From: Amphiscolops sp. MND2022
Lineage: Eukaryota
Assembly: GCA_964187785.1 (NCBI GenBank)
Contig: OZ076409.1
Location: 38,938,001 to 39,002,000, forward strand
Direction: 5' to 3'
Length of the DNA: 64,000 nucleotides
Under the pieces are notes generated by a model. The model ran no database searches. It was not told where the DNA came from and was given only the letters and a program-made list of their open reading frames with translations. Positions 12,046-44,444 of this stretch are shown here, in pieces; position 1 is the first letter of the stretch, and the number at the start of each line of letters is the position of its first letter. Position numbers and translations under genes: made by a program.

Positions 12046-12141
12046 CCCGAACAAAAGGAACACCACAGCCGGAGAAAATTCAGAAGCCCGCGGACTTCTT
12101 ACCAGAAGAAGAAACACCCCCAGGACCTTCAAACCAAAACT

Positions 12142-12169: not shown

Positions 12170-12393
12170 TATTGTATTCGGGTTCATTCCGGTTCATGAC
12201 CTTACCGAGTTTCGGTTTAAAGAACTTCAGTTTACGTCTAGAATACCAAACAATGTTGATAAACAAAAACTACAACAAAACTATATTGGATATTTCATTT
12301 ATACGATTTGAATATCTACGTTCTAGACCATAGAAAAAGAGATTACTTTTAGAAACTTTTCTTTTATCAAATCTGAGTTATTAGAATAGAACA
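12170..12393 (+). repeat. 3' LTR (224 bp; TG start mutated to TA)
   Basis: Direct repeat of 6542-6764, followed by TSD CCCGT. Confidence 0.97.
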
Positions 12394-13849: not shown

Positions 13850-15350
13850 ATCATTGGGTACTGTGGTTGACTGATGATATGGTCGTTGTTTTTCTTGATT
13901 AATGCTATAGATGATTCTCTAAGGTGCTTCCAAGGGTTGCTTCACTCGGTCGACGCGCAATCAAACGAATTTGCAGTTTTCGAGTGCACATGCGATGAAT
14001 GTCTTTTATGGAGATGAAGGCACCTTTGAATGTTGTCTGATATCTTTTTTGAAAACTAGATGTTCGAGGTTCACCTGAAATTGTTGGACGAAGGCAAGGG
14101 TGATATGTGCCGTCTTCTCTGCAACTGTTGTCGGGTATAGTACATCTGGTCCTGTTGGGACTGCTAGCTGTGAAATGGGCTTGCTGTCTGGAGTTGGCCT
14201 CAATCCGAAAAGAATGGGTAGTACTGCTATCCAGTAGGTCTTTGAAGATATTAACGCTGCTGCTTAGAGAGTTCGATGAAAACGCTCGAATTTTCCATTG
14301 CTCTGTGGGTGATATGAAATTGTACGGCGTCTGCAAAGTGAGGCAGTTGTGACACCATTCTTTGATAAAGCGTTCGGCATTTGACACCGTGAAGTGGGCG
14401 AAGATCATACGTGACATTGATTTCAATTGCTGTGGCAAAGATTCTGAAATTGATTTAAGATTGGATAACGGCATTGTTCGGGCAGAATTGGGCGCGGGGG
14501 ATGCTTTTATCGCAAATGAGAGTCGTGTTTCCAATGCTGATAATCTTAGTTCCATGTGAGTATCTTTCTGACATTTGCTGTTGAAATGAAGTGTCTTCAA
14601 TGCGGGCAATTGTTGGTAGAATATAGGTGGCGATGAAAAGTGTTGACGTTGATACTACGGTTATTAATGTGTCGACGGTTGGTGGTCAAGAAAAGCAGTC
14701 AGCTACAACATTTGTCGATCCTGAGATTTGATGAATTTCGGCAAGGTGTTCTGTTAGTAGAGAAAATTGCCGAGACTGTCGAGAGTTGTTGGTGTTGTTC
14801 CGGCTTCGTTCAAATGAACTGGTGACTGGTTTGTGGTCTGTGAAAACTACGGTATGGCGTCCTTCAATGAGATGTTTGAATTTTATTGTTGCTGCCAATT
14901 TTGTTATCGCAACGACGTAGACGAATACATCTGGGAATCGGTTGATGACTTCGCTGATGAATGATTGGAAAGTTTTACCGTCGTTCTTGAGTCCGAAAAG
15001 CTTGCTAAGAAACTCAAAGAGTTCGAATAGAGTCGTAACGGCTTTCTTCTTGATGTCGTCGAGGTGCATGGGAATTCAATGATACGCTTTGACTAAGTCT
15101 AGTTTGCTGAAGAAATGTTTGTCGTGGATTGCAAACCATGAAAACACTGGCAATGTGTAAGAATCGCGATGTGTGATTCGGTTGAGGGCGCCGCAGTAAT
15201 CTCCACACGGTCTCCATTCTCAGATGTCTTTTTCCGGTACCATATGCCGAGACGATGGTTATGGGCTTTTCAATTGTCAGATGATTCCTAACCGTTGCAT
15301 TTCGTCGAAAGAAGATTTGACAAAAAATAGGTTTTCCGGGCAAATATTTC
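13850..15350 (-). pseudogene. Heavily decayed Gypsy pol relic (RT, RNase H, integrase fragments)
   Basis: RNase H C-terminus FKHLIEGRHTVVFTDHKP...SGSTNVVADCFS. Integrase zinc-finger remnant FIKEWCHNCL. RT-like CGDY/LDLVK remnants around 15090-15220. Confidence 0.8.
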
Positions 15351-16092: not shown

Positions 16093-18091
16093 AACAAGAC
16101 GCCCGCTGAGCAGCGAGATATTTTCCGCCCGAACTGTTCTACAACTACATAAATTTGAGGCTCAAGGATAACTAATGCACTATAAAAACGCTAAGAAGTT
16201 CGAAGAAAAGAAAGCTTTGATTTATCTTTGCCCAGTTGTGAAGGAAACACCTTTATTTTAGTATTTCTGCGATAGTTGGCCAGTTTTCGTAATTTTGACA
16301 CTATGCGACTTACCGAGTGAAATTTTTAATTTTTTTCGAAAACAATTTTTCTCTAAAGGCCGACTGAAATAAGCGTTCAATCCTTGTTGAACCTTAGCCA
16401 TCGTTTTGAATCCAAAACGCTTCAAAATGTAGACATGGGTTGCTTAAAAACGATGATGCTGAAAGCAAAAAAATGTTAGTGTTTTTGAAGCAAAACGCTG
16501 CAATGTTCTCTTCAAAAAATGTATTGCATAGCTCGTTCTTTCGTTGTTGAGCGTTATGGAACTAAAAACGAAGATTTGGAGTTGTACGAAAATTGCATCA
16601 AAAACTACAACATCGTCGAATTTTTCGACTACTTCAAGGTCAATTTCAAGCACTTTTGAATTAGAAATTGTTTTTATCTGTTGTCGAAAGCTTACAGAGA
16701 CAACAACTTTCTCATTGTTTAGGGGTTTTAACATTCTAGTTCACAAAGTCCATCGATAGTTTGGCAATAATTGAAGAAAAGTGATGAAAATAGAAAATTC
16801 TTCTTTTTTTTCTTTTTTCGATGTCAATTCCAGACATTTTTCAATTGAAAAGCTGCATTTATCGTTCCACTAAGTATACGGGACAACATTTGTTCCTTGT
16901 TGACCCTTTCCAACATTCCAATCTCCGGAGTTTGTTGAAAATTTTTAGGAAAAACTGCATAAAACTATGAAAATTGAAAAATTTTGGGATTTTCGTCAGT
17001 TTCGGTGTCAAGTTGAGACTTTTTCATTCAAAAACTGAAACTATCTCATCCTTAAAGACTACCGGACAATAAACTGCTACCTTGGTGAACGTTTTCATTA
17101 TTCCACTCCACGGAGTTTGTTGAAATCGTGACAGAAATTGCATAAAAACATAGAAAAAAGGAAAACTTTGGGTTTTTTGTCGTTTTTGGTGCCAACTTGA
17201 GATTTTCTTCATCTAGAAGACTTCATCAAGTTCTTCGGAAAATTTTTCTGGACCAATACTGTTCGTTGCTTACGCTTCGCAATATTCTGATCTACGAAGT
17301 CTGTCGAAAATGTGACAAAAATTGCATAAAAAATTCCAAAAATAGAAAATTTTGGGTTTTTTGTCACTTTCGGTTTCAATTTGAGAGCTTTTTCAGTCAG
17401 AAAATAAAATACTATTTTCGGAAAAGCCTACTGGACAGCTAATACGGGCCACTTTGACCGTTTTCAACATTATAATTAACGAAGTCCTACTAAAATTCGA
17501 CAAATATTGAATAAAATTGTTAAAAATCGGGAAATTTTTGGAATTTTGGTCATTTATTGGGTCAATTTTCTGACAAAACCGCATTTTTCTCTTCCTAGAA
17601 AACTATTGGACAACAACATCGTGCCTTGTTGAACGTTTGCAACATTCTAATTTGCAATGTTTTATGAAATTCAGAAAATTTTGGAATTTTTGTCATTTTT
17701 GGGGTCAATTTTTTGGTACAAAATTGACTTTATCTCTTCATAGAAGACTGGAGAATGAATTCGTGCCCTGTTGAACGTTTTCAACATTCTAATTCGCGGT
17801 GTCTCTCAAAAAATGGCAAAAATTGCATAAAAACGTTAAAAAATTGAGAAATTTGGGAATTTTTGTCATTTTCGGGGTCATTTCGTCATTAAGGGGTCAT
17901 TTTCGTCATTTAAAAAAACTCCAAAAACCTCTACAAATACATATCGCACGAAGCTAAATTTATGTGAGTTGAATTCTATGGGTAACACCCTTAAAGTCAA
18001 ACATAAATAAATTCTTGGCAAATTTTGTAAAAAAAACCCGTTTGATTTAAATATTTTCCTTTACCATATATGAAATATGGGCGGAAAAAAA
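16093..18091. mobile_element. Helentron/DINE-1-like non-autonomous element with internal degenerate ~130-140 bp tandem repeats
   Basis: AACAAG terminus, hairpin CGCTG-AG-CAGCG (16104-16115), subterminal inverted repeat TTTTCCGCCC (16121-16130) / GGGCGGAAAA (18079-18088). A second copy lies at 51098-54610. Confidence 0.65.
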
Positions 18092-20630
18092 TAACGTTTT
18101 TAATACCAGACGAATTGACTAAACAACTCAATTGAAGGCGATTGTGGTAAGGGTGGAAATTACGTCTCGTATTTTTTACTACTTTCAACCTTTGCAAATA
18201 CAAAAATTACAAAACAATTACAATAGACGATTTATAGACGCAAACACAATTTTCCAAACACGAATGATAGAATAAAAGCAAGAATGTTTTTTGTCGTTGT
18301 TACGGAACATGTTGAAAAGGAGATCACACAGAAAGCAATTGTGTCTCAACGATGATCTTTGGAGTCTCAGCTCACGCACGATTGAACGGGGTTCCCAACG
18401 AAGGTTTTGGAGTCTCATCTCACACACGATCGAAAGTGTACAACGAAAGTCTTGCAGTCTTATCTCACTCGCGACTGAAGCATCAGGATATTTTCAAAGG
18501 TATTGGAGTTCCACATCGGCTATGGCTAAACTTCTATTCCGAAGTTATCGCAACGCATGGTCTCTGAGTCGCACCTCACTTGCAACTGCAGATAGATATC
18601 GCCGACATAACAATATTCTGTTTGCTCGATTTCAACACAGTGTGTGTGTGCATGCTTGGAATTGGAACTTTTTCGGCCCAAGTTGTTCTTTCGGCAGTTA
18701 AGTCACTCAGGTATTCGTAATTTGTCATCATTCGATTGTTTTTGGTCCGGAGTAAGAGGTGAGTAAGACTGTTTTTCCTATTTCGGTACTAGAAGTTCAT
18801 CAAAACTGCGATTTCTCATCACTTGTAGGTCCTAGTTCCACTCTCTTTTCAATCTTAGTAGTGTTCTATTTCGTTTTTAATAAGAATTAAGGTGAGGTTT
18901 ACTGGTGCAACTTTTCATTTGCAAAACACGACTTTAACTTCGGCCTAATGATTGATAGTTGCATTTGTGGACGAAACCTTTTTCTCACCCAACTCCTGAC
19001 AAAACGCTTCAGCAAACTATGGCAAACGGGAATAGTTTTTTTTTCACATTCTTAATTTGCTTTTGGTTGTGGTACACCTTCTAGGGCAAAAACCAGGTCT
19101 TGCGATTACCGGGGCAGAAAAAACAAAATGCATAAAAAACAAATCACTGGGAAGAACGTTCCAAGGGATACCAAAAACAATCACGGACAACTCTCAATTC
19201 TTGATCTTTTATGGTAAGAAACGCTCTGAAAGGTGTCAAGGACGGAAATCGGTTCCATTTGGCAACAACCTCAAATATTGAGATCCCGTACTTTTTCAAA
19301 TTGAAATACAGCTTTCAGGGTTAAAAACATCGATATCCCAAGCTTTTGGGAGTAATTTGCATTTTATATGAGGGCTCTAGGTTTTCGCTACAAATTGCTT
19401 TTCTTGAAACATTCTTGTTCTCATTTCTAATTACCTGACTTTCAACATTAAGGCCAACATCTCAAATCCAGTTCACTTTACCTCTATCAGCTCTCAATTC
19501 GGAATGTCATTCAAGTATTCTCAAGTAATCTGCAAAGCGATGGCTATTGTGCTCCTATTCGTTGAGTACCAAGCAATTATACCAGCAAAGCGGTATTTTT
19601 GGTCCTAGTTTGGCCATTCTTAACGTTTGCTGGCTCAATTGTCAAAACAACAGAATCTTGTTTCTTTTTCAATTACCACCAGTTAGTGAGTGCATTTATA
19701 TTTGGCCAATAAATATAAAGCTATTCAGTTCATTTAAGCTATAACTGAACCTCGTTTGCCAAGTGTGGCTATCACACGAAGTTCTCAAAGAGATCAAATT
19801 TTTGACAAATCACCAGAAGTTTGAAAGACTCCAACTAAGCTCGTGTTATTGCACAACTTCCAGCTCTCCGTTGTCTGGAATGTCGATTACTGAAAACCGT
19901 TTGTCGATATCTTTTCTCATCTCGGGAAATCGGGTTTCATTCATTTAAAAAAGGAAGGTTGGTTTGGTAGTTCAAAGTGTGTGGTGGAGGTTTTCTTGTT
20001 AATTGTCCGTTGAACCACTCACAGCGCTTTCACAACATCTTTCATTTCATTTTCCCACACGCTTTGGTGAGTTGCTTTCATGTGGTGATAGCACACACAG
20101 CGAACTTTCACTCTCGCTTACCCTCAAACACATGTATTACCAAAACAAGCTTAGTTGGTATTTTCGTTTCACTGCTAATATAGCTTCTGGTTCAGTAACT
20201 GTTAACTCTAGGACTTTATAATACAAAACGTTTTATGCAACACGTTTTATTCATCAAAGCGTTGTTGAACGAATCAATGGTTTCTATAGAAGTTTCAAGA
20301 ATTTGAAGTGTACTTCTGATGTAACAGTAATTCACGAACTTTGATGGCCTTCCACTTAATGTTGTTATTGGTTCATTGTAACATTACTTATGCTTCTAAA
20401 ATTTCATATTCCATCCAGTTTAATATACCTTGCCCATTAATAATTTGAATAAACATCATCAACAAAGTAAAGATGAAAAATTCAAAAAACCTACAATTGA
20501 CCAAATTTTACCAAATCATAATGATTGTAGAAATCCTCAGAAACGTTTAGTGACAAGAGACAAGGCGAGAAGGAGTAACGTCGGCGCCTTAAATGAAAAA
20601 AGGAAATATTAAAAGAAGAGCGTGTGTAAT

Positions 20631-23015
20631 TTCACTTGCTGTTCTGGCCTAATTGGATTTGGAAGAGGACGCGGCCTTGGGTTTTGTAACTACTACTGAA
20701 CTATTTTATAGATGTCTAATTCTACTTACGGTACAGCAGAATTATTTGTAGATATTTTGCCGCACACAACATCCAACGTAAGCGTTACGATGTATTTTTG
20801 GAAATTATTTTAGAGCTAACTAAAACTTCCGGTTCAATGTTTTCACACGTAACGTTATTCTCTATTTCCGGTTTCGTCTTGTGAAATTTCCATACTAATC
20901 TAAATACTAAAACGGAAAGATTTTCCAAAATAGGATCATTTATTTCTTCTCTACACTGAAATGAAACATTGAAGATAATATTTAACTTCGCGATCCCAAC
21001 GCAGTTCATACAATCTAATATGAAAAGAACATACAAAATAATATAGAGGAATTGTTTTCCAGTATTAAGGTAGTTGTCAATATCCACTTAAAATCTGAGT
21101 CAAGTGATTTTAGGCAAAAGTTTACAACGTTATGACAGCGTCACTCAACTGAGCTAGTGACGGGTGTTTCTGTTTTTACGGACCAATAGCGTCGCATCTT
21201 AACTGAATTATTTGAGCTCAAGCCAACAGAATTGTGCTTGGTTGCCCCTAGCAACGCCAACTAGCAAAGAGAAAAAGAATGAAATCGCCTACGCTCTCCG
21301 CTTTCTCTCCGTCAGCCACGGCTGCTCAGCTATTCCTAATCTTAATACGTACGAACCGTCTACGGAGCGAATTGTGAAGTTGTAAATACGAAGTAACAGT
21401 TCAAACAAATTTCAAACGATGTTTGTTTCTAAATGGACGCGTTTAAAGTATTCTAGAATTAAGATCTTTCACATAAGACAAGCGGTACTGTAAGAAGGAT
21501 TAAAGCGGAAACTTTTGTACATTATCAGATGAAGTATAGATGATAGGAAACGTTGACCTTACGTCGAAACTCTCTATTATTCTCCCATCTAATACAGCAC
21601 GAGTATGTTGTAAAATATTTTCCTATTCAAGTTCCTAGTTATACTAGAACGCCACGAAAGGTCTTCGTTCCCAAAAATCTAAATGTGCGAAAACAAGCTT
21701 TCTAAACGAATGGAATGTACAATTATTTTTACGTATACATAGCGTGGTGCTTAATTTGATTTGCAAGTACAAAAATCAATGGTGATATCATTTTTCTGGC
21801 CACTATAGTAATGATCTTATAACGACGGTCTTTGTGTGTTATGTCCAGTTCACCTTCACAATACAATGTATAATTCCCGTTGCACTCACGTTCATAGTTA
21901 GTATTGTACCGAGTGAATGTTGTTTCTGTTTAGCATATGCACTTTAATCATGACCTTCATTGTTTAAATTCATTTTGTTTTGAGTTTGCGGATTGTCTCC
22001 GCGAACATTGGATAATGTCTAAGTCAGAGTACTTTGTTATGCTCTATTTTCAACAGCTATAAATTTGTAATGTTGTTTGTATTCGTGTCAATACTTGGAA
22101 TATTCTATTCCGGCATCATTCGTTCCTTTTGCAAACAGTTAGATATTTTTCTTCGCTTTCGAATTTCTCTGCTCCGTTTCAATTCCGTCATCATTTTAGC
22201 GAGTCAAATTTTTGTTCGAATCTCAGCTTTCCTAAGTTGCGAATCACAATCCACAAATTCGCACAGAAACGGTACCAACACTCCCTTCACCACCATCACC
22301 TATCCAAAAAAATTCGGAACCAACGCCAACAGTACCGGTTATGGTACCGTCAACAACCATAGATGCAGAGAACATCATCTGTATAGAAGACAAACCGATT
22401 TGGTCACGACAAGCAAGACAACAGAGAGAGGACAGCCTTTCTCCCCCACCACCGCCACAAACGGCGCCCGACACCGAAGCACCAGAGAACGACGAAAAAA
22501 CAACGGAGTGTCCCCCATCACTACCCGAAGATCTACATGTCAACAAAGAATTCATCCAACACGATAAGGATGACAACTACATCCCGTTAATGTCTGCAAT
22601 AGCCCTCAAAAAGAAGAAGAGAATGCTCTTCCTACCGGTTGAATTCAAAAATGTCAAAATTGACGCGTTAGTAGATTTAGGTGCATACATGAATGCCATT
22701 AGTGAAGGGGATGCCGAGAAAATACAAAAAATGCAAGCCAATGCATCATCAATAAAGCACCACCACCCCTTTCAACGTACAGTACGAAACCGCCGAACTA
22801 GAACAATCACTTGCAACGTACACTCTACGGTTCAAAATTGGGGATTACATTTTTGAAGAAACGTTCATCATCATGAACCAGACGTCATTCTCCATAATAG
22901 GATTGGCGTTCCTACGGAAACATGCTGCAATCCTCGATACCACCCAAGGTACCATGGACTTCCGGAAGATCCAGATTACAATGGCGCAATGGCGCTCACT
23001 GATGAAATGCAGTGA
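20631..23015 (+). mobile_element. Internally deleted duplicate of the family C Gypsy element (LTR part fused to protease region)
   Basis: 20645-22243 is near-identical to 23016-24615. 22250-23015 is near-identical to 26319-27075 and includes the ALVDLGA protease motif. Confidence 0.9.
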
Positions 23016-26000
23016 TGGCCTAACTGGATTTGGAAGAGGACGCGGCCTTGGGTTTTGTAACTACTACTGAACTATTTTAAAGATATCTAATTCTACTTAC
23101 GGTACAGCAGAATTATTTGTAGATATTTTTCCGCACACAACATCCAACGTAAGCGTTACGAAGTATTTTTGGAAATTGTTTTAGAGCTAACTAAAACTTC
23201 CGGTTCAATGTTTTCACACGTAACGTTATTCTCTATTTCCGGGTTCATCTTGTGAAATTTCCATACTAATCTAAATACTAAAACAAAAACATTTTCCAAA
23301 ATAGGATCATTTTTTCCTTCTCTACACTGAAATGAAACATTGAAGATAATATTTAACTTCGCGATCCCAACGCAGTTCATACAATCTAATATGAAAAGAA
23401 CATACAAAATAGTATAGAGGAATTGTTTTCCAGTATTAAGTTAGTTGTCAATATCCACTTAAAATCTGAGTCAAGTGATTTTAGGCAAAAGTTTACAACG
23501 TTATGACAGCGTCACTCAACTGAGCTAGTGACGGGTGTTTCTGTTTTTACGGACCAATAGCGTCGCATCTTAACTGAATTATTTGAGCTCAAGCCAACAG
23601 AATTGTGCTTGGTTGCCCCTAGCAACGCCAACTAGCAAAGAGAAAAAGAATGAAATCGCCTACGCTCTCCGCTTTCTCTCCGTCAGCCACGGCTGCTCAG
23701 CTATTCCTAATCTTAATACGTACGAACCGTCTACGGAGCGAATTGTGAAGTTGTAAATACGAAGTAACAGTTCAAACAAATTTCAAACGATGTTTGTTTC
23801 TAAATGGACGCGTTTAAAGTATTCTAGAATTAAGATCTTTCACATAAGACAAGCGGTACTGTAAGAAGGATTAAAGCGGAAACTTTTGTACATTATCAGA
23901 TGAAGTATAGATGATAGGAAACGTTGACCTTACGTCGAAACTCTCTATTATTCTCCCATCTAATACAGCACGAGTATGTTGTAAAATATTTTCCTATTCA
24001 AGTTCCTAGTTATACTAGAACGCCACGAAAGGTCTTCGTCCCCAAAAATCTAAATGTGCGAAAACAAGCTTTTTAATCGAATGGAATGTACAATTAATTT
24101 TACGTATACACAGCGTTGTGCTTAATTTGATTTGCAACTACAAAATTCAATGGTAATATCAACTTTTTGGCTACTATAGTAATGATCTTATATCGACGGT
24201 CTTTGTGTGTTATGTCCAGTTCACCTTCACAATACAATGTATAATTCCCGTTGCATTTACGTTCATAGTTAGTATTGTACCAAGTGAATGTTGTTTCTGT
24301 TTAGCATATGCACTTTAATCATGACTTTCATTGTTTAAATTCATTTTGTTTTGAGTTTGCGGATTGTCTCCGCGAACATTGGATAATGTCTAAGTCAGAG
24401 TAATTCGTTATGTTCTCTTTTCAACAGCAATAAATTTGTAATTCTGTTTGTATTCGTGTCAATGTTTGGAATATTCTATTCCGGCATCATTCGTTCCTTT
24501 TGCCAACAGTTAGATATTTTTCTCCGCTTTCGAATTTCTCTGCTCCGTTTCAATTCCGTCATCACTTTAGCGAGTCAAACTTTTGTTCGAATCTCAGCTT
24601 TCCTAATTTGGGAATTGAGTAATTGATCACGCCGGCGTGGCTACGCTGATGAAAATGTCAACTAGATTTGTATTTTGCCGCAATTATGAAGCTCAAACAC
24701 CAAATGAGATCGCGTGAACAAAAATGATTTCAAGAAAGTTTTACGGAATAGTGACGCAACTAGGAATTTCGATGCCTGATTTTTTGACGCGTTTTGATGA
24801 ACAAACCCAAATTTTATGAAACCTGAGGAACAAATGATGTAGAGACATGAAAAATAACTCAGTCAATCTTGTAACTGTTTCACGTTCAACTGTTCCGTTG
24901 TAACAACGAAAAACTTTCTTTGACGAATTCACCAATTCCAAAGATCGTCTTTCTTCTCTATTCAAAAATGACAACTAGAAGCCAAAAGAGAAAAGCTGTA
25001 GTCGAACTAAATTCCGGAGAATTCGAAGCATCTGTAGCTGAAAATGACTCATCTGAAAACCTAGTAGCTTGACCTAGCAAAACTCTTAGAGTTGAACCTG
25101 AAATTCTTGATGAGACAAAAATATCTTTGAGTAAAGAAATCATGTCTAATCTAACAAAGATATTAGATATCTGAACAATCAAGACTCTGATTCTGAGTCA
25201 GAAAAGATTGTATCCTCATCTAGCTGAGATACAGAAAATCAACGTGTTTCAAGCGTACTGCAACCTTGAGGATGCTAAAAAAGACAACCTAGAAAATGTT
25301 ATAACGGCATTCAAACGTCGTTTTGGGGATTTCCAATCCTCCGCGAAGGCAAGATGCGAAGGGGATGCGCTGCACTTCAATCCCACAAAACCAAAACTGC
25401 ATGAATTCCTCAATCTTCTGCAGAAAACTGCTAAAAAAGCGTTCGGTTCTGAAGCGCAAAAGTTCTTTGACAAAACCATATACGCTAAAATGCCCAATCA
25501 ACTTCAAAAGATCCTCAACAATGCATGCCTAGAAGACAAGCCCTACAACAATATCGTTCTGCATCTTGAGCGAGAGATGTGATTAAACGGACTAGGAGCG
25601 CCTGATGAAACGACCCTAGTCCCTCTAAGCACAGTAGACGCAGTAGTGACGGAAGACAAGAAGGAACAGCAACCAAAACGCTATTGCATCCATTGCGGTA
25701 AAAATTCCCACTGCAAAGCACAGTGTCGCCGGCTTTGAAAAGAACGATACTACGCAACTGAAACGAACGCTACTAACACAAAACAAGCAGATGAACCAAT
25801 TTCCAAGTGTGATACGCGCGCCAAATTGCACAAAACCGAAAATTGCTGGGTTGGAGCTAACGCGGCAAATGATACAAGAAACAAGAAACGAGAATTTGCT
25901 ATACCAACCGATAAAATCAACGAACAACCCGTACCCACAACACAACCAAAAAACTAAAATCGCCACGCCTACGTTTCGGGGAAAAAGAAGACGAGAGGGC

Positions 26001-27890
26001 ATACACCAATGAAGATCCCCCAAGAAGATTCGAAGATGTTCTAACCGAGTGCAATGAAGAACCTACTCAAGATTGGCAACGACGCTGGAACGTAGGTATG
26101 ATTCTTCGACACAACTCCAGACGTCCGGATGTCCCACAACCACTTCCCCAATGGATAACTGAGTCACCTGATAACTATGCAACACTCAAAAGACCACTTC
26201 CAGTGTCGAAAACTGACAGGAATTACATTTACGATAAAAACTACCGCTGCGATCCGTGGGATGAACCAACGATCTACGATGCAAACACTCTATCTTTCAA
26301 AATACAAACTCCCAATCTACAAATTCGCACAGAAACGGTACCAACACTCCCTTCACCACCATCACCTATCCTGAAAAATTCGGAACCAACGCCAACAGTA
26401 CCAGTTATGGTAACGTCCACAACCATAGATGCAGAGAACATAATCTGTATAGAAGACAAACCGATTTGGTCACGACAAGCAAGACAACAGAGAGAGGACA
26501 GCCTTTCTCCCTCACCACCGCCACAAACGGCGCCCGCCACCGAAGCACCAGACAACGACGAAAAAACAACGGAGTGTCCCCCATCACTATCCGAAGATCT
26601 ACATGTCAACAAAGAATTCATCCAACACGATAAGGATGACAACTACATCACGTTAATGTCTGCAATAGCCTTCAAAAAGAAGAAGAGAATGCTCTTCCTA
26701 CCGGTTGAATTTAAAAATGTCGAAATTGACGCGTTAGTAGATTAAGGTGCATACATGAATGCCATTAGTGAAGGGGATGCCGAGAAAATACAACAAAATG
26801 CAAGCCAATGCATCATCAATAAAGCACCACCACCCCTTTCAACGTACAGTACGAAACCGCCGAACTAGAACAATCACTTGCAACGTACACTCTACGGTTC
26901 AAAATTGGGGATTACATTTTTGAAGAAACGTTCATCATCATGACCCAGACGTCATTCTCCATAATAGGATTGGCGTTCCTACGGAAACATGCTGCAATCC
27001 TCGATACCGCCCAAGGTACCATGGACTTCCGGAAGATCCAGATTACAATGGCGCTCACTGATGAAATGCAGTGATGGACTGAAAGCCCACTGATGAAAAG
27101 TGCAACCAAAAACCCATTACCATCAAGACGGAAGGTAAACATTCTATACCCGCACAATCCACACGTATCATATACGCGCCACTCGCTGTGATTTATGATC
27201 ACCCAAAAACTGAGACTATACAACCTCTACCACAGTTTGACGATTGTGCAAACTCATAGTAGCGCCGGCAATAACAACTGCCAGTGACAAGAAGATAGGT
27301 ATAAAAATTGCCAATACAACGGATTTCCCTACACAATAAGTGGAGACACCAAACTGTCAAATTGCAGATTTTGAAACCAGAAGAAACAAAAATGATCCGT
27401 CCTGTCGACATAGCGGCACTCAATCTCTTAACGGAACACGACGACGTTGTAACGTACATCAACACCTCGATGCAACTGGAACGCCCCGAGGACAACGAAG
27501 AGAAAGTTTGGTTCCCAACCCCAGAAAAGCCAGGAAATGAACAAGAACACTCGCCCATACAGAAGCGGCTTTTGAAATAACTACGGGAACTGGCTGAGCA
27601 TGAACAACTTAATCCAACTGAAAACGAGGAATACCGAAACAAGTTTCTCTCAATGTTCCATTGGACAAACTCACTAATTGCGAGCAAAGACCGAGAAAAC
27701 CTAGAAGATACATTCGTAGAATTCAATGACATTTTCGCCCGACATAGACTTGACATCGGCATGAACACGCAATTCAAAGTCAGCTTAACCCCAGAAGCTG
27801 ATAAACCCGTATACACGAGTCCCGACCAATCTTAAAGAACACCTGACAGTAGAGCTAGCCCTCATGCACCGATACGGAATCATCACGACA
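23016..27890 (+). mobile_element. Truncated large-LTR Gypsy element (family C): LTR, gag, protease, start of RT
   Basis: LTR portion is homologous to the inverted solo LTR 44445-46489. gag starts MTTRSQKRKAV at 24968, with knuckle remnants CIHCGKNSHCKAQC and CDTRAKLHKTENC. Protease ALVD*GA near 26730. RT N-terminus FNDIFARHRLDIG...ELALMHRYGIITT. Confidence 0.9.
25948..25957 (+). promoter_or_regulatory. Putative -1 ribosomal frameshift site (A AAA AAC followed by gag stop TAA)
   Basis: Canonical X XXY YYZ heptamer at the end of gag (CCA AAA AAC TAA). The -1 frame stays open past the stop. Confidence 0.65.
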
Positions 27891-28007
27891 AAAAACACTA
27901 CCGGCAAACAAAAACAAGTTGTCAGCAGTTTGTTGATCGTTTAATCGTTTAGTTGTTGGGGAGCACGTATGCCCGTTCCATTATTGCCAAAGGAATGTGC
28001 TGTTTCT

Positions 28008-28085
28008 GCTCAGAATTGATGCTGGAGGATTGAAGAATTGATGCTGGAGAATTGATGCTCAGAATTGATGCTGGAGAATTGAATG
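28008..28085. repeat. Short degenerate tandem repeat of AGAATTGATGCT(GG/C)
   Basis: About 5 consecutive 13-14 bp units. Confidence 0.8.
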
Positions 28086-28672
28086 AAGACGAAAACCAGC
28101 ATGTTCTTTCCTTTTGCCTGCGGATAATTGTTGCCCCAATTCATGATTAGCAAGAAAGGCATCAAATGAGACAACAGCGAAGTCTCGGATCTTCATAACA
28201 TCCATGAAAAGACTCCCAAGTATGAATTTCTGGAAGGCCACTGTTGACTCGAGTCTTCAAAAGCAGACAATACACAAAATGGCAAATCTCGGCATATGCA
28301 CAGAAGGCGTAATCAGTCCGGCCCTGGCGTAACCTGGGACAATTGTTGTAGACTAAACACAAACCATTAATCAGTAATCAACGCCGAAAAAGAATCGAAC
28401 TCTCAACAAACGAAAGCTCAACGAAAAATCAGAATGAACAAACAGTCAGAGTCAATCAGATGAGCAATCTATAAACTGAAAAGGGCTCACTAACAAGTAT
28501 CAAGCACTACTTCAAGAAGTCCGAACCGATACGTTATCATGTTATCGGCAATCAACAGCCAATCAGTCCACTGCAGCTAAAATACCAATAGAAAATGAGA
28601 TTCAAAACACAACAACGAGGATACGACGAAAAGGTCTACCACAGATAGAAGACCAGAAAACGAAATCATGAC

Positions 28673-31072
28673 TTACTCTATCAGCCTTGTATTTCGCCTA
28701 AGGATTGCCAGTGCACCGGATGTACGGACGTATTGAAGACCACAACTCGACCAAATCTGACAATACACCCCGCAAATCGGCGAACTCCACGAATCCTTGA
28801 CGGAAAATCCTACACAGGACAATCCTATCTTCAATCCAGTCCTCGTATACAGGAGTTTTTAGACGTAGAATGGTATGTATACTCTACTAGAGTTGTTATT
28901 TCCACCATACTAAATACGTCCTGGTATGCTTGCCGGATACAACGAAAAAGCATGTCACTGTGAAACGGGTGTTACGCCACATACACACGATTATCATCAC
29001 TGCTGTGTCCCAAGACTCGGGCAAAAGACGGACTTCCTCCTACTATGGCCAACGGTTATCTCTTGGATTCCAAGCTGCAAACAATTCGAGCTAATGGGAG
29101 CAACTCCGGTTTTGGCATGGGCTGATCCAAAAACTCGCGGACCACACACACTTTCTTTAGGTGATTGTCTTCCCAAAACAGGACAAAGCAACGTTCCATG
29201 TTCGCATTCTTCTCATACTGCAACACATACTCACGAAAATGCCCGATGCTCCTGAACATTATCCGTAACACCCGTGGAACAAGACCTTGACACAGAGCAG
29301 CCTAAAACAAACAACAAGTAAATATAAACAGACCAGCAAACGGTCAGTTGGATACATGTCACGCTATCGAATGAAACAAAACCAATGTCACGCGCTCAAC
29401 GCGGAAAACCACATATCCTACAGAAAGAAATCACTCACCACAGTCTCTGTACGGCTCCATTGTAGGGTAAATTCAGGCTCTCGACAACCCAGTGAATCAA
29501 GTAAGTAACCCCACAAACGTCGAACCAGCGTGAAATCTCCACCACTCCGTAAAACGTCATTCAAGCTCGACGCGGGCGTCATCAACGGCACTTTCGAATC
29601 TGCCTTTGAGTGCTACGGCAGTATGTCCTCATGAAACAGAAATTCCCCGCCCAGATCCACAAAAGACCGTGATCGGAACTCTTCCTCCTGTCTAGCTCTC
29701 ACCTCCATGGGCTCCATCAACTCGATGTATATCGGCAGCCCCATGTGTAACCGATACACCACGTCTTGCTCCCAATGCTCTCTCGATTAAAAATGGCGAA
29801 CAAAACAGCGGACCCATGCGAACCCATCTTTACATCTCGTCTACAGATTCAGCAATAGAAGAATTTGGCACTTTCACATTCCGCAGAAGTTACGAAATCA
29901 CCGAACAGCGGATTCAATGACAACATCCGACAGCGCAAAAGGTTTTGGGCACTATATTTCTTCGTCTTCGGCCGGTCCAGTTGACTTTCCACTTTCTCAA
30001 CAAGTTCGCTGAAACCTAAAATGCACACAAAACATTTAAACACCAACCCAATGTGCAATATGGACTACAGAAAACCCTTGATCATTCAAAATAAAACGTC
30101 ACCTCAACACTATATAAATCAACCCACAGAAACCAACACCACGAATCAACACACCTGTTTGAATCTGCCAACAGTACGTACGTTCCTCCACCGTTGAAGC
30201 TAGCTGACGACCGAATTGCAACACCTCAGGCGACACCGAACTCACGCAACCCATTCCCGGAGAGGCCCCGTCTTCAGCCCCGCTCCAGCCACTCAGTCCG
30301 TCCTCCAACTCTGAAACTCTCGCTTTCCTCTTCTGTTTAGAAGAAGGCGTCGACACAAACCTCACGCTTGTCTTGCGAAATGGGGAAACCTTTGAACCTA
30401 CAACAAAAACGCAATGTACAACAACCTACAAAGGTTCAAAAAAACAAAAGAGAACAAATGATAAGAAAGCGCAACAGAGAAATCAGTTACCGCTTGGTTG
30501 ACAATCTTCCCGGTCGGCGTCTCCGTCTTCTGAGGAGGCGGATCCCACCGCACCTCCATGAGGTTCTAAGTCAAGATCGACGTTGCCCGAAACTACCCCG
30601 GACAAGTCTGGAGGAACAGCAGAAGAAATATTGACACCCGCATTAGTGGCGGACTCAATTGTTGCACCAAAAGGAAGCAATGCTACTAGAGCTTTATTAA
30701 CAGTCTGGTTCGCGAGAAGCACTATGGAGACTGGAGACAGTCTATCGAAGGAGCCCAACGAAGGCAACTCCTCGGCAACAACAGCAGTCACGTCCGTAGT
30801 AGTAGCCGGAACAACAGTATGGGAAGCGCCAGGTTGAGTTACTGAAAATCAAGATCTGGTTTGACGCGTTAGAGATACGGGTAAAACTGTAAAGGTTGAT
30901 CACTAAAACAATAGTCCAATCACCCATGGAAGTCAGAAAGGTTTTACCAACTTGAAGAAGTTACTGCAGCTTCCGCCTCCGAATGATAGACGTCATCCTC
31001 AATGAAACAAAAGTTAGTTTCATGTCCATTCTGGAAACCAGCACCACTGGGAGGACCAACATCTTCATCCAT
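28673..31072 (-). pseudogene. Five-exon spliced gene of unknown function (~640 codons), carrying several stops and frameshifts
   Basis: Exons 31072-30924, 30841-30491, 30397-30155, 30015-29439, 29301-~28690. Introns 30923-30842, 30490-30398, 30154-30016, 29438-29302 are all GT..AG with T-rich acceptors. Splicing joins four separate ORF-track frames in phase. Confidence 0.75.
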
Positions 31073-31373
31073 TGCAAGAAAACTTCAAAACGATCTAAAA
31101 CCCAAAAAAAAATCAAAGAAATGAAGAAAAAGAAACCAACGAATTATTCCGGAAGAGTATCTTACAGGAAAATATCAGCATCATTTTTACTACAATTGGG
31201 AAAAGAATTATCTCCTTTTCAGCTTTCACCTTGAGCCTAATAAAAGGCGGACCGGAGCGCAACGTTTCCAAAAATCATACAGTGAATCTAAAGGTGACTA
31301 AAAAACGCTGAAGGGAAACCCTCAAGGAAAACCACTTCTGGAAAACACTCGTGGACGTAATTCCATTTACAAA

Positions 31374-31905
31374 ATTGATCACGTCATAACGACGTAGCTG
31401 AGGAAAGCGAAGACTAAATTAAGAGCTTTCCTTTCATTTACTGGCCAATCGCAGTGCAGAAGGAAGCAAAACGCTTTCATGAGGTCATATGTAGAGATAT
31501 GTAAAAATCGTCGTTCAATCTTGTAATATTTTCACGTTCAATTGTTCCGTTGTATCAGCTAAAAACTTTCTTTGAAGAATTCATCAATTCCAAAGATCTT
31601 CTTTCTTCTCTATTCAAAAAAGACAACTAGAAGTCAAAGTGAAAAGCTGTAGCTGAATTAGTTTCCGGAGATTTGAAGCTTCAGTAGTTGAAAATACCTC
31701 ATCTGAAAACCTTGTAGCTGGACCTAAAAAACTCTTAGAGTTGAACGTGAAAATGTTGATGAGATAAAAACATCTTTGAGAAAAGAAATTATGTCTTATC
31801 TAACAAAGATATTAGCTGAAAATCAAAAGGAAATGTCTAAATTGATAGCACCTTTGAGCAAAAAACAGCCTGTATATCTGAACATCCAAGACTCTGATTC
31901 TGAAT
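31374..31905 (+). repeat. Family C-related LTR segment (promoter motif + dead gag N-terminus)
   Basis: AATTGATCACG-N13-GCTGA.GAAA also occurs at 24621 and, more diverged, inverted near 45100. TTRSQ..KAVAELVSG..EIKTSLRKEIMS frame is homologous to 24968 onward. Confidence 0.75.
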
Positions 31906-34900
31906 AACTCCAAATAAAAAAACGACACCTAATTTTTTTTCAACATTTTCTGCGTCCCTTCATACATTTTTTGGAACGGTAAAATGTTGAAAACATTTTA
32001 AAAAGTTCCATTTGGTGTTCAGCAGGCTTTTTGAAGCAATATGAGCAGACTTTGGCCCCAAAGTCCTTAGAATTGATCCTAAAAAACTCCGAAAATTCAA
32101 ATTGTATACTGTTATAGACATTTTACTTTTTGTGCAAGTTTGGAGGAAGGTTTGTAAATCAAAACATTTTTAAAAGCTTCAAACATTAGATATATATAGC
32201 TAAACAGTACGTCATTCTTTGGAAAATTGGTGGCTTTTGAGGTTGCAAAAGACACACTTCGACCACTACACTCAAGTTTCTAAATTTTATGGAAAGTTGA
32301 TAGTTTTGTGTTCTGAATTTTGTAAAATTTTCGAGAGGTTTCGTGGGTTAGAATAGTTAACACAATCAACAACAAATAAACGCGTCATCAACTGCGTTGT
32401 TTGGAAAAATTGCAGTTTTTTGGAGGAAAAGTCCTTGAAAAGGACCTCGAAAATACCAAAGTTTTCTATCCTTTAACGATTTCAGTCTCTCTGTTTTTCG
32501 AAATTAGAAACATTTGGACAGTTGAAAAGTTTTAAAAAATCCAATGAAAATAACTGAGTTCAGAGCACTCTTTCAGAAGAAAAAATTGCAGTTTGGCAGA
32601 AAAACACCCCAGAATGGCCCAAAAGATTCAAAAAATTAAAAAAGCTCGTTTTCCGACAAACGTTTTCTAATTTTTGTTCAACTTACCTCCATTGACCTGA
32701 ACATTCAAACATTAGGTGGATAAAAACCCTCGTACTTGAGAATAAACGAGTGAAAAGTTCCTCACTTATCGACCAAATATTGCCAATTGCTCGTTTTGGA
32801 CTTTTTCCGAATGTTTTCATGGAATAAAACATCAATGGGCTCAACGTCAAAACATGTAGCTACTAGTACAGGTTTTGAAACAATTGCACTACTGCAGAAA
32901 AGAAATGGCCAATTTTTCAAAAAAGATTTATCAATAAAGTAATTTCTTTCCTATACTTTTTCGTCAAACTTATTTGTTCATTAATCTTTAAACGAAAAAA
33001 CACAGTACGTCATCCTTGAGAAATAGTCTAGTTTTCCAGGTAAAAACAACCTCTAATTTTTTCCCAAACATCTCAAACTTTTGATGATTTCATGCTCTAT
33101 TTGTCAATTTTTTGAGCTGGGTTGAGAGTTAGAATGGTGTATATAGTCATCAACGAATATAATTGGTATCCAGTGAGCATTTTGGAAGCGATTTGTGATG
33201 TTTCGTGTTTGAAAATCGCGTCCTACTGACACAAAAGAATGGAACGTAAGTTATGTACTGGTCTTCGCTTGTTTCAACGATAAAACAATTCGGTACTTAG
33301 CGTATTCTTAAATCCGTTGTTTCTTTGGAAAATAGGATAAGGGGAATCAAAAAGAGTGAAAACTTTTATTTCAAACTTTTTTGCATTTTCATATTGCATT
33401 GGCTATTCTTGAGTCTCGAGATTGTGTCGTTCAATCTTGTAATTGTTTCACGTTCAATTGTTCCGTTGTATCAGCGAAAAACTTTCATTGACGAATTCAT
33501 CAATTCCAAAGATCTTCTTTCTTCTCTCTTCAAAAATGACAACTAGAAGTCAAAAGTGAAAAGCTGTAGCCGAACTAGTTTCCGGAGAATTTGAAGCTTC
33601 TAAAGTTGAAAATAACTCATCTGAAAACCTAGTAGCTGGACCTAAAAAACTCTTAGGTTTGAACGTGAAAATCTTGATGAGATAAAAACATCTTTGAGAA
33701 CAGAAATTATGTCTGATCTAACAAAGACATTAGCTGAAAATCAAAAGGAAATGTCTAAATTGATAGCACCTTTGAGCAAAAAACAGCCTGTATATCTGAA
33801 CATCCAAGACTCTGATTCTGAATAACTCCAAATAAAAAAACAACACCTATTTTTTTTTCAACATTTTCTGCGTCCCTTCATACATTTTTTGGAACGGTAA
33901 AATGTTGAAAACATTTTAAAAAGTTCCATTTGGTGTTCAGCAGGCTTTTTGAAGCAATATGAGCAGACTTTGGCCCCAAAGTCCTTAGAATTGATCCTAA
34001 AAAACTCCGAAAATTCAAATTGTATACTGTTATAGACATTTTACTTTTTGTGCAAGTTTGGAGGAAGGTTTGTAAATCAAAACATTTTTAAAAGCTTCAA
34101 ACATTAGATATATATAGCTAAACAGTACGTCATTCTTTGGAAAATTGGTGGCTTTTGAGGTTGCAAAAGACACACTTCGACCACTACACTCAAGTTTCTA
34201 AATTTTATGGAAAGTTGATAGTTTTGTGTTCTGAATTTTGTAAAATTTTCGAGAGGTTTCGTGGGTTAGAATAGTTAACACAATCAACAACAAATAAACG
34301 CGTCATCAACTGCGTTGTTTGGAAAAATTGCAGTTTTTTGGAGGAAAAGTCCTTGAAAAGGACCTCGAAAATACCAAAGTTTTCTATCCTTTAACGATTT
34401 CAGTCTCTCTGTTTTTCGAAATTAGAAACATTTGGACAGTTGAAAAGTTTTAAAACATCCAATGAAAAAAACTGAGTTCAGAGCACTCTTTCAGAAGAGA
34501 AAATTGCAGTTTGGCAGAAAAACACCCCAGAATGGCCCAAAAGATTCAAAAAATTAAAAAAGCTCGTTTTCCGACAAACGTTTTCTAATTTTTGTTCAAC
34601 TTACCTCCATTGACCTGAACATTCAAACATTAGGTGGATAAAAACCCTCGTACTTGAGAATAAACGAGTGAAAAGTTCCTAACTTATCGACCAAATATTG
34701 CCAATTGCTCGTTTTGGACTTTTTCCGAATGTTTTCATGGAATAAAACATCAATGGGCTCAACGTCAAAACATGTAGCTACTAGTACAGGTTTTGAAACA
34801 ATTGCACTACTGCAGAAAAGAAATGGCCAATTTTTCAAAAAAGATTTATCAATAAAGTAATTTCTTTCCTATACTTTTTCGTCAAACTTATTTGTTCATT

Positions 34901-37900
34901 AATCTTTAAACGAAAAAACACAGTACGTCATCCTTGAGAAATAGTCTAGTTTTCCAGGTAAAAACAACCTCTAAATTTTTCCCAAACATCTCAAACTTTT
35001 GATTTGATTTGATTGTTTTCATGCTCTATTTGTCAATTTTTTGAGCTGGGTTGAGAGTTAGAATGGTGTATATAGTCATCAACGAATATAATTGGTATCC
35101 AGTGAGCATTTTGGAAGCGATTTGTGATGTTTCGTGTTTGAAAAGCGCGTCCTACTGACACAAAAGAATGGAACGTAAGTTATGTACTGGTCTTCGCTTG
35201 TTTCAACGATAAAACAATTCGGTACTTAGCGTATTCTTAAATCCGTTGTTTCTTTGGAAAATAGGATAAGGGGAATCAAAAAGAGTGAAAACTTTTATTT
35301 CAAACTTTTTTGCATTTTCATATTGCATTGGCTATTCTTGAGTCTCGAGATTGTGTCGTTCAATCTTGTAATTGTTTCACGTTCAATTGTTCCGTTGTAT
35401 CAGCGAAAAACTTTCATTGACGAATTCATCAATTCCAAAGATCTTCTTTCTTCTCTCTTCAAAAATGACAACTAGAAGTCAAAAGTGAAAAGCTGTAGCC
35501 GAACTAGTTTCCGGAGATTTTGAAGCTTCAGTAGTTGAAAATAACTCATCTGAAAACCTAGTAGCTGGACCTAAAAAACTCTTAGAGTTGAACGTGAAAA
35601 TCTTGATGAGATAAAAACATCTTTGAGAAAAGAAATTATGTCTTATCTAACAAAGATATTAGCTGAAAATCAAAAGGAAATGTCTAAATTGATAGCACCT
35701 TTGAGCAAAAAACAGCCTGTATATCTGAACATTCAAGACTCTGATTCTGAATAACTCCAAATAAAAAAACAACACTTAATTTTTTTTCAACATTTTCTGC
35801 GTCCCTTCATACATTTTTTGGAACGGTAAAATGTTGAAAACATTTTTAAAAGTTCCATTTGGTGTTCAGCAGGCTTTTTGAAGCAATATGAGCAGACTTT
35901 GGCCCCAAAGTCCTTAGAATTGATCCTAAAAAACTCCGAAAATTCAAATTGTATACTGTTATAGACATTTACTTTTTGTGCAAGTTTGGAGGAAGTTTTG
36001 TAAATCAAAACATTTTAAAAGCTTCAAACATTAGATATATATAGCTAAACAGTACGTCATTCTTTGGAAAATTGGTGGCTTTTGAGGTTGCAAAAGACAC
36101 ACTTCGACCACTACACTCAAGTTTCTAAATTTTAACGAAAGTTGATAGTTTTGTTTTCTGAATTTTGTAAAATTTTCGAGAGGTTTCGTGGGTTAGAATA
36201 GTTAACACAATCAACAACAAATAAACGCGTCATCAACTGCGTTGTTTGGAAAAATTGCAGTTTTTTGGAGGAAAAGTCCTTGAAAAGGACCTCGAAAATA
36301 CCAAAGTTTTCTATCCTTTAACGATTTCAGTCTCTCTGTTTTTTGAAATTAGAAACATTTGGACAGTTGAAAAGTTTTAAAAAATCCAATGAAAATAACT
36401 GAGTTCAGAGCACTCTTTCAGAAGAGAAAACTGCAGTTTGGCAGAAAAACACCCCAGAATGGCCCAAAAAATTCAAAAATTAAAAAAGCTCGTTTTCCGA
36501 CAAACGTTTTCTAATTTTTGTTCAACTTACCTCCATTGACCTGAACATTCAAACATTAGGTGGATAAAAACCCTCGTACTTGAGAATAAACGAGTGAAAA
36601 GTTCCTCACTTTTCGACCAAATATTCCCAATTGCTCGTTTTGGACTTTTTCCAAATGTTTTCATGGAATAAAACATCAATGGGCTCAACGTCAAAACATG
36701 TAGCTACTAGTACAGGTTTTGAAACAATTGCACTACTGCAGAAAAGAAATGGCCAATTTTTCAAAAAAGATTTATCAGTAAAGTAATTTCTTTCCTATAC
36801 CTTTTCGTCAAACTTATTTGTTCATTAATCTTTAAACGAAAAAACGCAGTACGTCATCCTTGAGAAATAGTCTAGTTTTCCAGGTAAAAACAACCTCTAA
36901 ATTTTTCTCAAACATCTCAAACTTTTGATGTTTTTATGCTCTATTTGTCAATTTTTTGAGCTGGGTTGAGAGTTAGAATGGTGTAAATAGTCATCAACGA
37001 ATATAATTGGTATCCAGTGAGCATTTTGGAAGAGATTTGTGATGTTTCGTGTTTGAAAAGCGCGTCCTACTGACACAAAAGAATGGAACGTAAGTTATGT
37101 ACTGGTCTTCGCTTGTTTCAACGATAAAACAATTCGGTACTTAGCGTATTATTAAATCCGTTGTTTCTTTGGAAAATAGGATAAGGGGAATCAAAAAGAG
37201 TGAAAACTTTTATTTCAAACTTTTTTGCATTTTCATATTGCATTGGCTATTCTTGAGTCTCGAGATTGTGTCGTTAAATCTTGTAATTGTTTGACGTTCA
37301 ATTGTTCCGTTGTATCAGCGAAAAACTTTCATTGACGAATTCATCAATTCCAAAGATCTTCTTTCTTCTCTCTTCAAAAATGACAACTAGAAGTCAAAAG
37401 TGAAAAGCTGTAGCCGAACTAGTTTCCGGAGAATTTGAAGCTTCTAAAGTTGAAAATAACTCATCTGAAAACCTAGTAGCTGGACCTAAAAAACTCTTAG
37501 GTTTGAACGTGAAAATCTTGATGAGATAAAAACATCTTTGAGAACAGAAATTATGTCTGATCTAACAAAGACATTAGCTGAAAATCAAAAGGAAATGTCT
37601 AAATTGATAGCACCTTTGAGCAAAAAACAGCCTGTATATCTGAACATTCAAGACTCTGATTCTGAATAACTCCAAATAAAAAAACAACACCGAAATTTTT
37701 TTCAACATTTTCTGCGTCCCTTCATACATTTTTTGGAACGGTAAAATGTTGAAAACATTTTTAAAAGTTCCATTTGGTGTTCAGCAGGCTTTTTGAAGCA
37801 ATATGAGCAGACTTTGGCCCCAAAGTCCTTAGAATTGATCCTAAAAAACTCCGAAAATTCAAATTGTATACTGTTATAGACATTTACTTTTTGTGCAAGT

Positions 37901-39131
37901 TTGGAGGAAGTTTTGTAAATCAAAACATTTTAAAAGCTTCAAACATTAGATATATATAGCTAAACAGTACGTCATTCTTTGGAAAATTGGTGGCTTTTGA
38001 GGTTGCAAAAGACACACTTCGACCACTACACTCAATTTTCTAAATTTTAACGAAAGTTGATAGTTTTGTGTTCTGAATTTTGTAAAATTTTCGAGAGGCT
38101 TCGTGGGTTAGAATAGTTAACACATTCAACAACAAACAAACGCCTCGTCAACTGCGCTGTTTGGAAAAAGTGCGGTTTTTTGGGAGAAAATTCCTTGAAA
38201 AGAACCCGGAAATTACCAAAGTTTTCTATCCTTTTACGACTTCAGTCTCATGAGTTCACAGCATACTTTTAAAAGAGAAAATTGCAGTTTGGTAGAAAAA
38301 CACCCCAGAATGGCCCAAAAGATTCAAAAGTTTTAAAAAAGCTCGTTTTCTGACAAACGTTTTCTAATTTTTGTTCAACTTCGCTCCATTGACCTGAACA
38401 TTCAAACATTAGGTGGATAAAAGCCCTCGTACTTGAGAACAAACGAGTGAAGAGTTCCTCACGTATCGACCAAATACTCCCAATTGCTCATTTCGGACTT
38501 TTTCCAAATGTTTTCATGGAATGAAACATCAATGGGCTCAAGGTCAAAACATAGAGCTACCAATAGAGGTTTCGAAACAATTGCACTACTGCAGAAAAGA
38601 AATGGCCAATTTTCCAAAAAAGATTTGTCAATAACGTACTTACTTTTTTTTCTCGACCTTTTCGTCAATTTTTTCTGTTCATCAAGCTCTAAACGAAAAA
38701 ACACAGTACGTCATCCCTGAGAAATAGTCTAGTTTTCCAGGTAAAAACAGCCTCTAACTATTTGCCAAACATCCCAAACTTTTGATGTTTTCATGCTTTA
38801 TTTGTCAAATTTTTGAGCTAGCTTGAGAGTTAGAATGGTGTAATTAGTCATCAACGACTATATTTGGTATCCAGTGAGCACTTTTAAAGAGATTTGTGAT
38901 ACTTCGTGTTTGAAAAGCGTGTCCTACTGACACAAAAGAATGAAACGTAAGTTATGTACTGGTCTTCGCTTATTTCAACAATAAAACAATTCGGTGCTTA
39001 GCGTATTCTTGAATCTGTTGTTTCTTTGGAAAATAGGATAAGGAGAATCAAAAAGTGTCAGAACTTTTATTTCAAACTTCTTTGCATTTTCATATTGCAC
39101 TTGCTATTCTTGAGTCTCGAGATTGTGTCGT
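31511..39131 (+). repeat. Tandem array of four ~1.9 kb units (LTR/gag fragment + ~1.5 kb non-coding repeat)
   Basis: Units start TCGTT(C/A)AATCTTGTAA at 31511, 33427, 35356 and 37271. Periods are 1916, 1929, 1915 and 1857 bp. The non-coding part has an inverted, diverged relative at about 51900-52450. Confidence 0.97.
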
Positions 39132-43960: not shown

Positions 43961-44444
43961 TGTGTTCACCAAAATGGAGATAGACGAGAGAAAGGAACGC
44001 TATTGGCCCAAACTTTGAAAAGAACTCAAAAACATGAAAACGTTGAGTTTAGTATTGTTGAAGTATTATACTATTCTGATTGGTCCACTAGTATCCAATC
44101 ACGTGTTCGTAAAATGCAATAAATTTGCAGCCTAGCCTTGAATGTGTTTGTTTTTTGTACTTCTGATGTTCTGATTATTGTTATTAGTTACTTTACCCAA
44201 TATCAGTTACTGACTGGAATGTGACAGAGCGTTACAAAATTGTAAATATGTCACTCATTAGCCTATCGCTAAACAAACAGTAATTATCACATCGAACTAA
44301 ATTGCCAAAAAGGAAAGAAACGTCATTCGCACCTTATTTGTCATATTTCATGTTAGTTACACACTTTTCTTTCTCGAAAGCACAAAAGTCGTCTCCAATG
44401 ATCCCTTTTTCCAAGATTCCAAAATCGACTGTGTAGTGTGGTGG

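Follow-up and report, generated by a model that had tools for sequence, protein, structure and literature searches.

The window analyzed here, a 64,000-nucleotide stretch (positions 38938001–39002000) of a 1.07-Gb eukaryotic assembly (probably of an invertebrate animal, judging from the size and acceptors of the introns), carries on its reverse strand a broken copy of an intron-containing gene, which lies antisense within the remnants of a Ty3/gypsy retrotransposon (Table 1). In the alignment of 20 copies this gene consists of seven exons (121/351/225/578/621/82/1301 nt) and six introns. One of the aligned copies is open throughout and encodes 1,092 aa, four contain a single stop, and the remainder are more broken. 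An earlier note, made from the sequence of the window alone, described the copy as pseudogenized, and this is confirmed: exons 4 and 5 contain three stops and one frame change apiece, exon 7 contains one frame change, and one deletion took most of exon 7 together with most of the reverse transcriptase (RT), RNase H and integrase.

The earlier note proposed five exons and four introns. Introns 2, 3 and 4 are present in the sequence with the donors and acceptors assigned to them, and the start codon, the sizes of exons 2 and 3 and the basic patch of exon 3 were also given correctly. The first intron was misplaced: it was described as 82 nt long with the donor at 30923, but the donor lies at 30951, where GT is kept in 19/20 aligned copies (8/20 at 30923). 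The donor at 30923 is rejected because exon 1 would hold a stop and end in phase 2, and its GT is poorly kept. The gene does not end at 28673 as proposed, since intron 5, exon 6, intron 6 and the start of exon 7 continue beyond this position. The interval 28200–28670, interpreted earlier as the tail of pol, corresponds to intron 5 through exon 7 read on the opposite strand; comparison of pol with it gave no real match (best E 0.078 over 18 aa). The ATG is indeed close to LTR sequence in the window, as was noticed earlier, but this is an artefact of deletions. The distance is short because a second deletion took out ORF3, a sense-strand frame, and the greater part of the 3' LTR; in intact elements the ATG lies ~1.4–1.5 kb from the 3' LTR.

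Table 1. Antisense gene and remnants of its host element in the window.
Feature	Position	Strand	Details
Partial duplicate of LTR and gag sequence	20626–23021	+	
5' LTR remnant	about 23017–25166 (within 20626–25166)	+	
Remnant of host element: gag, protease, start of RT	25250–27890	+	rest of RT, RNase H and integrase deleted
Exon 7 piece, small, inverted	27919–28026	+	at the deletion junction
Exon 7, 5' remnant	28082–28352	-	truncated by deletion; ~1.3 kb in intact elements
Intron 6	28353–28494	-	142 nt
Exon 6	28495–28576	-	82 nt
Intron 5	28577–28676	-	100 nt, GTAAGT..ATTTTAG; overlooked by the earlier note
Exon 5	28677–29301	-	predicted RNase H-like strands and beginning of helical insertion domain
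Intron 4	29302–29438	-	137 nt, phase 0; absent in sister clade
Exon 4	29439–30015	-	predicted CxxC..H..H (BED-type) zinc finger and helical region preceding RNase H-like core
Intron 3	30016–30154	-	139 nt; acceptor apparently here in sister clade too
Exon 3	30155–30397	-	243 nt in the window; basic patch KQKRKAR
Intron 2	30398–30490	-	93 nt
Exon 2	30491–30841	-	351 nt
Intron 1	30842–30951	-	110 nt, GTTGGT..TTTTCAG
Exon 1	30952–31072	-	121 nt, ATG at 31072; acidic, low-complexity N-terminus
Region upstream of ATG, presumed internal promoter	31073–31487	-	TGACGTCA degenerate in the window
3' LTR, 3' part	31489–31904	+	ORF3 and 5' part of LTR deleted; caught in tandem array

Host element and position of the antisense gene

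Intact elements are ~15.3–16.7 kb long and have LTRs of ~1.9–2.35 kb with TG..CA ends. The domain order of intact pol (PR-RT-RH-IN, Pfam) is that of Ty3/gypsy; the window keeps only gag, PR and the 5' part of RT. The integrase contains D-D-E motifs, and TGGTGACAGGAG, located after the 5' LTR, is the putative primer-binding site. Target site duplications (TSDs) of 5 bp together with TG..CA LTRs were seen by eye in 17/17 elements. Automatic scoring gave exactly 5 bp in 27/36 elements and none longer, and no obvious motif was seen in the TSDs of either set. Many elements are young, with LTRs 99–100% identical.

The gag ORF of intact elements starts ~400 bp inside the LTR and stays open across the end of the LTR and through the primer-binding site; a gag N-terminus is consequently present in the 3' LTR as well. 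A second accessory ORF of ~240–350 aa, the sense ORF3, is positioned head to head with the antisense gene (L069:5758-6798 (-) and equivalents) and extends into the beginning of the 3' LTR; it is deleted in the window. Its dN/dS is 0.12–0.27, and a Pfam search with it gave no match. Two further remains of the family occur in the window: a tandem array at 31510–39131 (four 1.92-kb units, 89–97% identical, each with the 3' end of the element's LTR) and a degraded, inverted, solo-LTR-like copy at 44440–46390 (-).

DNA and protein searches of the genome revealed many copies of the antisense gene. Of 1,303 candidates from the DNA search 40 were scored, yielding 71 matches, while 150 of 4,821 candidates were scored for exon 5 and 117 of 6,952 for exon 7; these are not copy numbers. 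A single-copy host gene is ruled out by the multiple copies residing in LTR elements. Sixty regions, including the window, were examined, all found through the antisense gene; a script placed pol upstream, on the strand opposite to the gene, in 59 of them, and pol was also seen in the remaining one. A gene-blind sample was formed by taking every seventh of 136 integrase matches, which represents one subfamily group. All 20 elements picked in this way carry the gene antisense, downstream of the integrase. The copies thus lie antisense between pol and the 3' LTR of TSD-bounded LTR elements, which supports the core claim of the earlier note, namely that the gene is an intron-containing accessory gene encoded by the element. 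An env-like ORF was considered and rejected, the gene being antisense throughout the integrase-picked sample and its predicted fold transposase-like.

Conservation, introns and exchange of the gene

A profile of exon 7 was searched against 1.84 billion proteins (E ≤ 0.001) and gave 738 relatives, 150 of which were listed. Through one of those listed, a continuous 890-aa homologue, a sister clade was found within this genome, with a pol 40–55% identical to that of the window clade. Sister-clade elements have the gene at the corresponding position, and exons 4–7 form one ORF of ~870 aa (10/10 fetched), which aligns end to end with exons 4–7 of the window clade; short introns are apparently confined to the 5' part of the gene. 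Since the sister clade carries exons 4–7 as a single exon, the splice model is independently supported. Three core introns are present in the window clade and absent in the sister clade, through either gain or loss. At the position of ORF3 the sister clade contains a ~260-aa ORF, for which tblastn gave no match to ORF3. The antisense gene family likely exists in other assemblies too, since some of the listed homologues match this genome at best at only 36–53% (top candidates scored). A word-based search for longer homologues of exon 7 gave none.

Purifying selection acts on the gene between subfamilies, as dN/dS among copies indicates: eight divergent copies compared with the unbroken copy gave 0.125–0.175, and shifted-frame controls gave 1.0–1.75. 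The lowest values (0.05–0.10) belong to exon 4, which encodes the zinc finger. For the nine closest copies dN/dS is 0.36–1.03, as expected from decay after insertion.

Splice sites are conserved as well. In the eight divergent copies GT/AG is retained at 87/96 splice sites, compared with 283/775 for GT/AG in intron interiors. In about 20 elements the core introns have GT..AG at the same codon and phase at 54/55 scorable positions; the copies thus keep their introns. The 55th position is an exact absence of intron 6 in one subfamily; in this young subfamily (L223/L224, G000:C5:12.53 Mb) introns 4 and 5 are kept. Judging from its conservation, the antisense gene would be transcribed separately, from an internal promoter, and its mRNA spliced. 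Introns antisense to the genomic RNA of a retroelement are not removed from that RNA by splicing and are therefore retained. The introns would persist through retrotransposition of these elements because the genomic RNA is the strand opposite to the gene.

Two short motifs recur near the 5' end of the gene. The palindrome (G)ACGCGTC occurs within 2.2 kb upstream of exon 4 in 51/60 elements, with both clades represented (8.5 expected), and in almost every case it precedes the first acceptor by a short distance; in the window (T)GACGCGTC(A) is located at 30863–30869, inside intron 1. This palindrome is conserved between clades whose proteins are ~25% identical and could be a branch point, a site for a dimeric protein or an RNA dimerization signal. 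The second motif, TGACGTCA, occurs upstream of the ATG in 42/60 elements (2.0 expected).

Trees of integrase and of the antisense gene (FastTree topologies, AU tests) covered 39 of 50 regions, 11 being dropped for short or missing single matches. The trees agree on the deep clade split and conflict within clades, with AU p values of 4e-152 and 3e-8. In 15 elements (pairs not independent) exons 4, 5 and 7 are intercorrelated with rho 0.68–0.78, whereas their correlation is 0.37–0.56 with integrase, 0.22–0.60 with parts of the LTR and 0.16–0.27 with ORF3. Synonymous divergence of the antisense gene is saturated while dS of pol is 0.39. The incongruent trees, the AU tests and the lower correlations rule out that the gene descends strictly together with integrase or LTR. 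As judged from these trees, the gene is older than the clade split, and subfamilies exchange it as a cassette; in the sample it was replaced but never lost. Such exchange, independent of the LTR and ORF3, argues against subfamily-specific LTR binding, and implies that the protein has either a target conserved from one subfamily to the next or a host factor as its target.

Predicted fold and catalytic positions of the product

The C-terminal half of the product was described in the earlier note as unassignable to any family. Sequence and profile searches were indeed null, but the structure model predicts a hAT transposase fold. Pfam searches with window ORFs, exons and homologues gave nothing significant for the antisense gene, the ESM Atlas gave no usable match, and PDB sequence searches and a phage collection gave none. 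HMMs produced no signal against the hAT loci of this genome; profile–profile comparison (hhalign) with its hATs gave probabilities of 0.1% and 2.4%. Comparison with DUF4371-type hATs of this genome gave no match, and neither did the control.

The protein modelled was P0227, a sister-clade homologue ~20–34% identical to the window-clade exons, rather than the spliced product. The model contains an RNase H-like core with a large helical insertion, resembling Hermes. Two structural aligners ranked Hermes first, over 400 residues and with a clear gap, followed by RAG1, ISCth4 and Tn5; TM-scores to Hermes are modest (0.34/0.49). The structural alignment reaches Hermes residue 609, and Pfam shows no C-terminal hAT dimerization domain (PF05699). 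Exon 5 folded alone gave a pLDDT of 40 and no transposase match. The product of the antisense gene is thus predicted, from the model of its homologue, to have a hAT transposase fold. Upstream of the core, the zinc ligands are nearly invariant (C 28/28, C 27/28, H 27/28, H 28/28); the CxxC..H..H arrangement gives weak matches to generic zinc-finger Pfam families and none to zf-BED. The product also contains basic patches.

The CxxH and TRW motifs define hATs, as was also seen here. Catalysis in Hermes is performed by D180, D248 and E572 (PMC2533014). The corresponding positions were mapped by secondary structure and motif spacing, not by residue-level superposition; six genuine hATs of this genome have closely similar spacings. 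The position of the first Asp is occupied by Q/E/R/K (D in 0/31, E in 10/31), and that of the second by G in 24/31 and D in 4/31. The Cys position of CxxH is F/Y in 30/31, the Trp position of TRW is F in 25/31, and the model of P0227 has no helix at the expected place of the Glu helix. On this mapping the catalytic DDE triad and the CxxH and TRW motifs have likely been lost. Scanning of two elements revealed no convincing inverted repeat (TIR) flanking the gene in either, and the TSDs are the 5-bp duplications of the element itself, not of the 8-bp hAT type.

Possible role and relation to known systems

In our preferred reading, to which a probability of about one half is given, the window contains a broken copy of a conserved, antisense, six-intron Ty3/gypsy gene, whose product would have a hAT fold and act as a likely non-catalytic, nuclear, DNA-binding regulator promoting expression of the element. 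The regulator would be a trans-acting activator or anti-silencer. It is rather probable that an ancient, animal-type Ty3/gypsy clade domesticated a hAT transposase, making of it an antisense gene that is spliced, non-catalytic and nearly obligate, whose introns were gained or lost and whose cassette was traded. A hAT element or hAT gene would have entered the clade's ancestor in antisense orientation and then lost its TIRs and catalysis. The protein may oligomerize and bind DNA via the zinc finger, and its acidic disordered N-terminus could act in trans, either activating the element or protecting it against silencing.

A less likely alternative is that the same hAT-derived, non-catalytic protein acts at integration as a tether or chaperone, through nuclear import, holding of cDNA ends or choice of the target site. 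Transposase scaffolds hold DNA ends and targets (PMC10368747), the entire fold is conserved here beyond the zinc finger, and no integrase-picked element lacks the gene. However, the gene has been swapped without its integrase, as the within-clade incongruence and its AU tests indicate, and the TSDs have no obvious motif. It is unlikely that the protein represses or immunizes against related elements (copy-number control), or serves as a decoy blocking host or hAT-directed defence. Cassette swapping and saturated synonymous divergence beside a close pol resemble an arms race, and antisense RNA may provide dsRNA control (PMC7264820), but a conserved positive role would agree with the acidic N-terminus and the strong purifying selection, and the elements are young and very numerous, LTR identity reaching 100%.

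It is improbable that the protein remains active as a nuclease or transposase, its active site being shifted or non-canonical. This idea could draw on the complete hAT-like fold predicted, on an invariant E in the exon-5 alignment and on D/E at column 668 in 31/43. Against this, the ends of strands 1 and 4 have no acidic column common to both clades, CxxH and TRW are apparently lost, the model has no helix at the expected place of the Glu helix, TSDs are of 5 and not 8 bp in elements whose own integrase has D-D-E, and no TIRs flank the gene. Very improbable is a chance match of an RNase H-like core with helical bundles, the gene being derived from an unrelated host gene; such a match would agree with the lack of a sequence or profile link to hAT, yet two aligners agree on Hermes as the best match, clearly set apart from the next and extending over 400 residues, and a zinc finger is located upstream, as in hAT. 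Although nested insertions are common and the genome is rich in hATs, the reading as a hAT that was nested here recently, or as a neutral passenger, is refuted, practically beyond doubt, by purifying selection (dN/dS about 0.15), conserved splice sites, the lack of TIRs, the same position in clades with 40–55% identical pol, and the presence of the gene in every integrase-picked element.

The regulator reading can be compared with antisense ORFs of LTR elements. Those designated aORF-3R lie between pol and the 3' LTR in maize Grande (gene23), rice RIRE2, Retand/TRP28 and Botrytis Boty (PMC7264820; PMC11963269). Like the gene described here, they are conserved, share this place and orientation and occur in most copies; gene23 of Grande is nuclear with its own promoter, and a regulatory role was proposed (PMC7264820; PMC11963269). 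Unlike the gene described here, with its six introns, ~1,090 aa and predicted whole hAT fold, they are plant and fungal ORFs of unknown origin. A nested-TE origin of aORFs was weighed in a 2020 review, which reports no supporting similarity to other TEs (PMC7264820), and the word "intron" is absent from the main text on Retand (PMC11963269).

With Hermes and other hATs (PMC10368747) the product shares the predicted zinc finger, the helical region preceding the core and the RNase H-like core with its helical insertion. It differs in the apparent loss of DDE, CxxH and TRW, in the absence of TIRs and of an 8-bp TSD, in extra disordered tails (acidic N-terminal, basic C-terminal) and in moving as retrotransposon cargo. 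Host-domesticated hATs such as the ZBED genes are similar in that a hAT transposase is reused as a likely DNA-binding regulator, although ZBEDs keep the DDE triad (PMC3606216), which the antisense protein apparently does not. CERV of Cer1 (PMC10309623) and the ORF3s of bdelloid elements (PMC5408684) are likewise extra element-encoded genes, some spliced and nuclear, but in those accounts they derive from spliced messages of the element and have no hAT ancestry. In contrast to the ZBED genes, the owner here is another mobile element, and the gene exists in many copies. HBZ of HTLV-1, a bZIP protein, is not known to be transposase-derived. It is also antisense, as cited in PMC11963269.

The open literature searched contained no description of an LTR element with an antisense gene of hAT origin (and rich in introns), and a Repbase annotation could exist; the accessible text of PMC13547354 and PMC6431247 contains no such case. 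If the domestication scenario is true, it would be a case, not described before, in which one class of transposon domesticated another, a retrotransposon counterpart of the ZBED genes in which domestication is performed by a mobile element instead of the host. It would also provide a traced origin for an antisense accessory ORF. Structure prediction here links the gene to a hAT transposase that is invisible to Pfam and profile searches, and other orphan accessory ORFs may be cryptic transposases. The difference between the clades and the exact absence of an intron in one subfamily could offer a natural system for intron gain and loss within a retroelement.

Several other repeats are located in the window. 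An unrelated gypsy-type element (zinc knuckle, protease, RT, integrase) occupies 6800–12200; its pol is ~27% identical to that of the clade over one stretch, and it gives no match to the cargo profile. Fragments of other retroelements, RT (+) and RNase H (-), are found at 48900–49740 and 14686–15075. A 26-bp minisatellite array at 3014–4100 adjoins a perfect 146-bp palindrome (3014–3159) and inverted copies of the unit, and is possibly a foldback element or the end of a DNA transposon. A repeat unit of ~184 bp forms dispersed arrays at 16787–17900 and 52200–54400.
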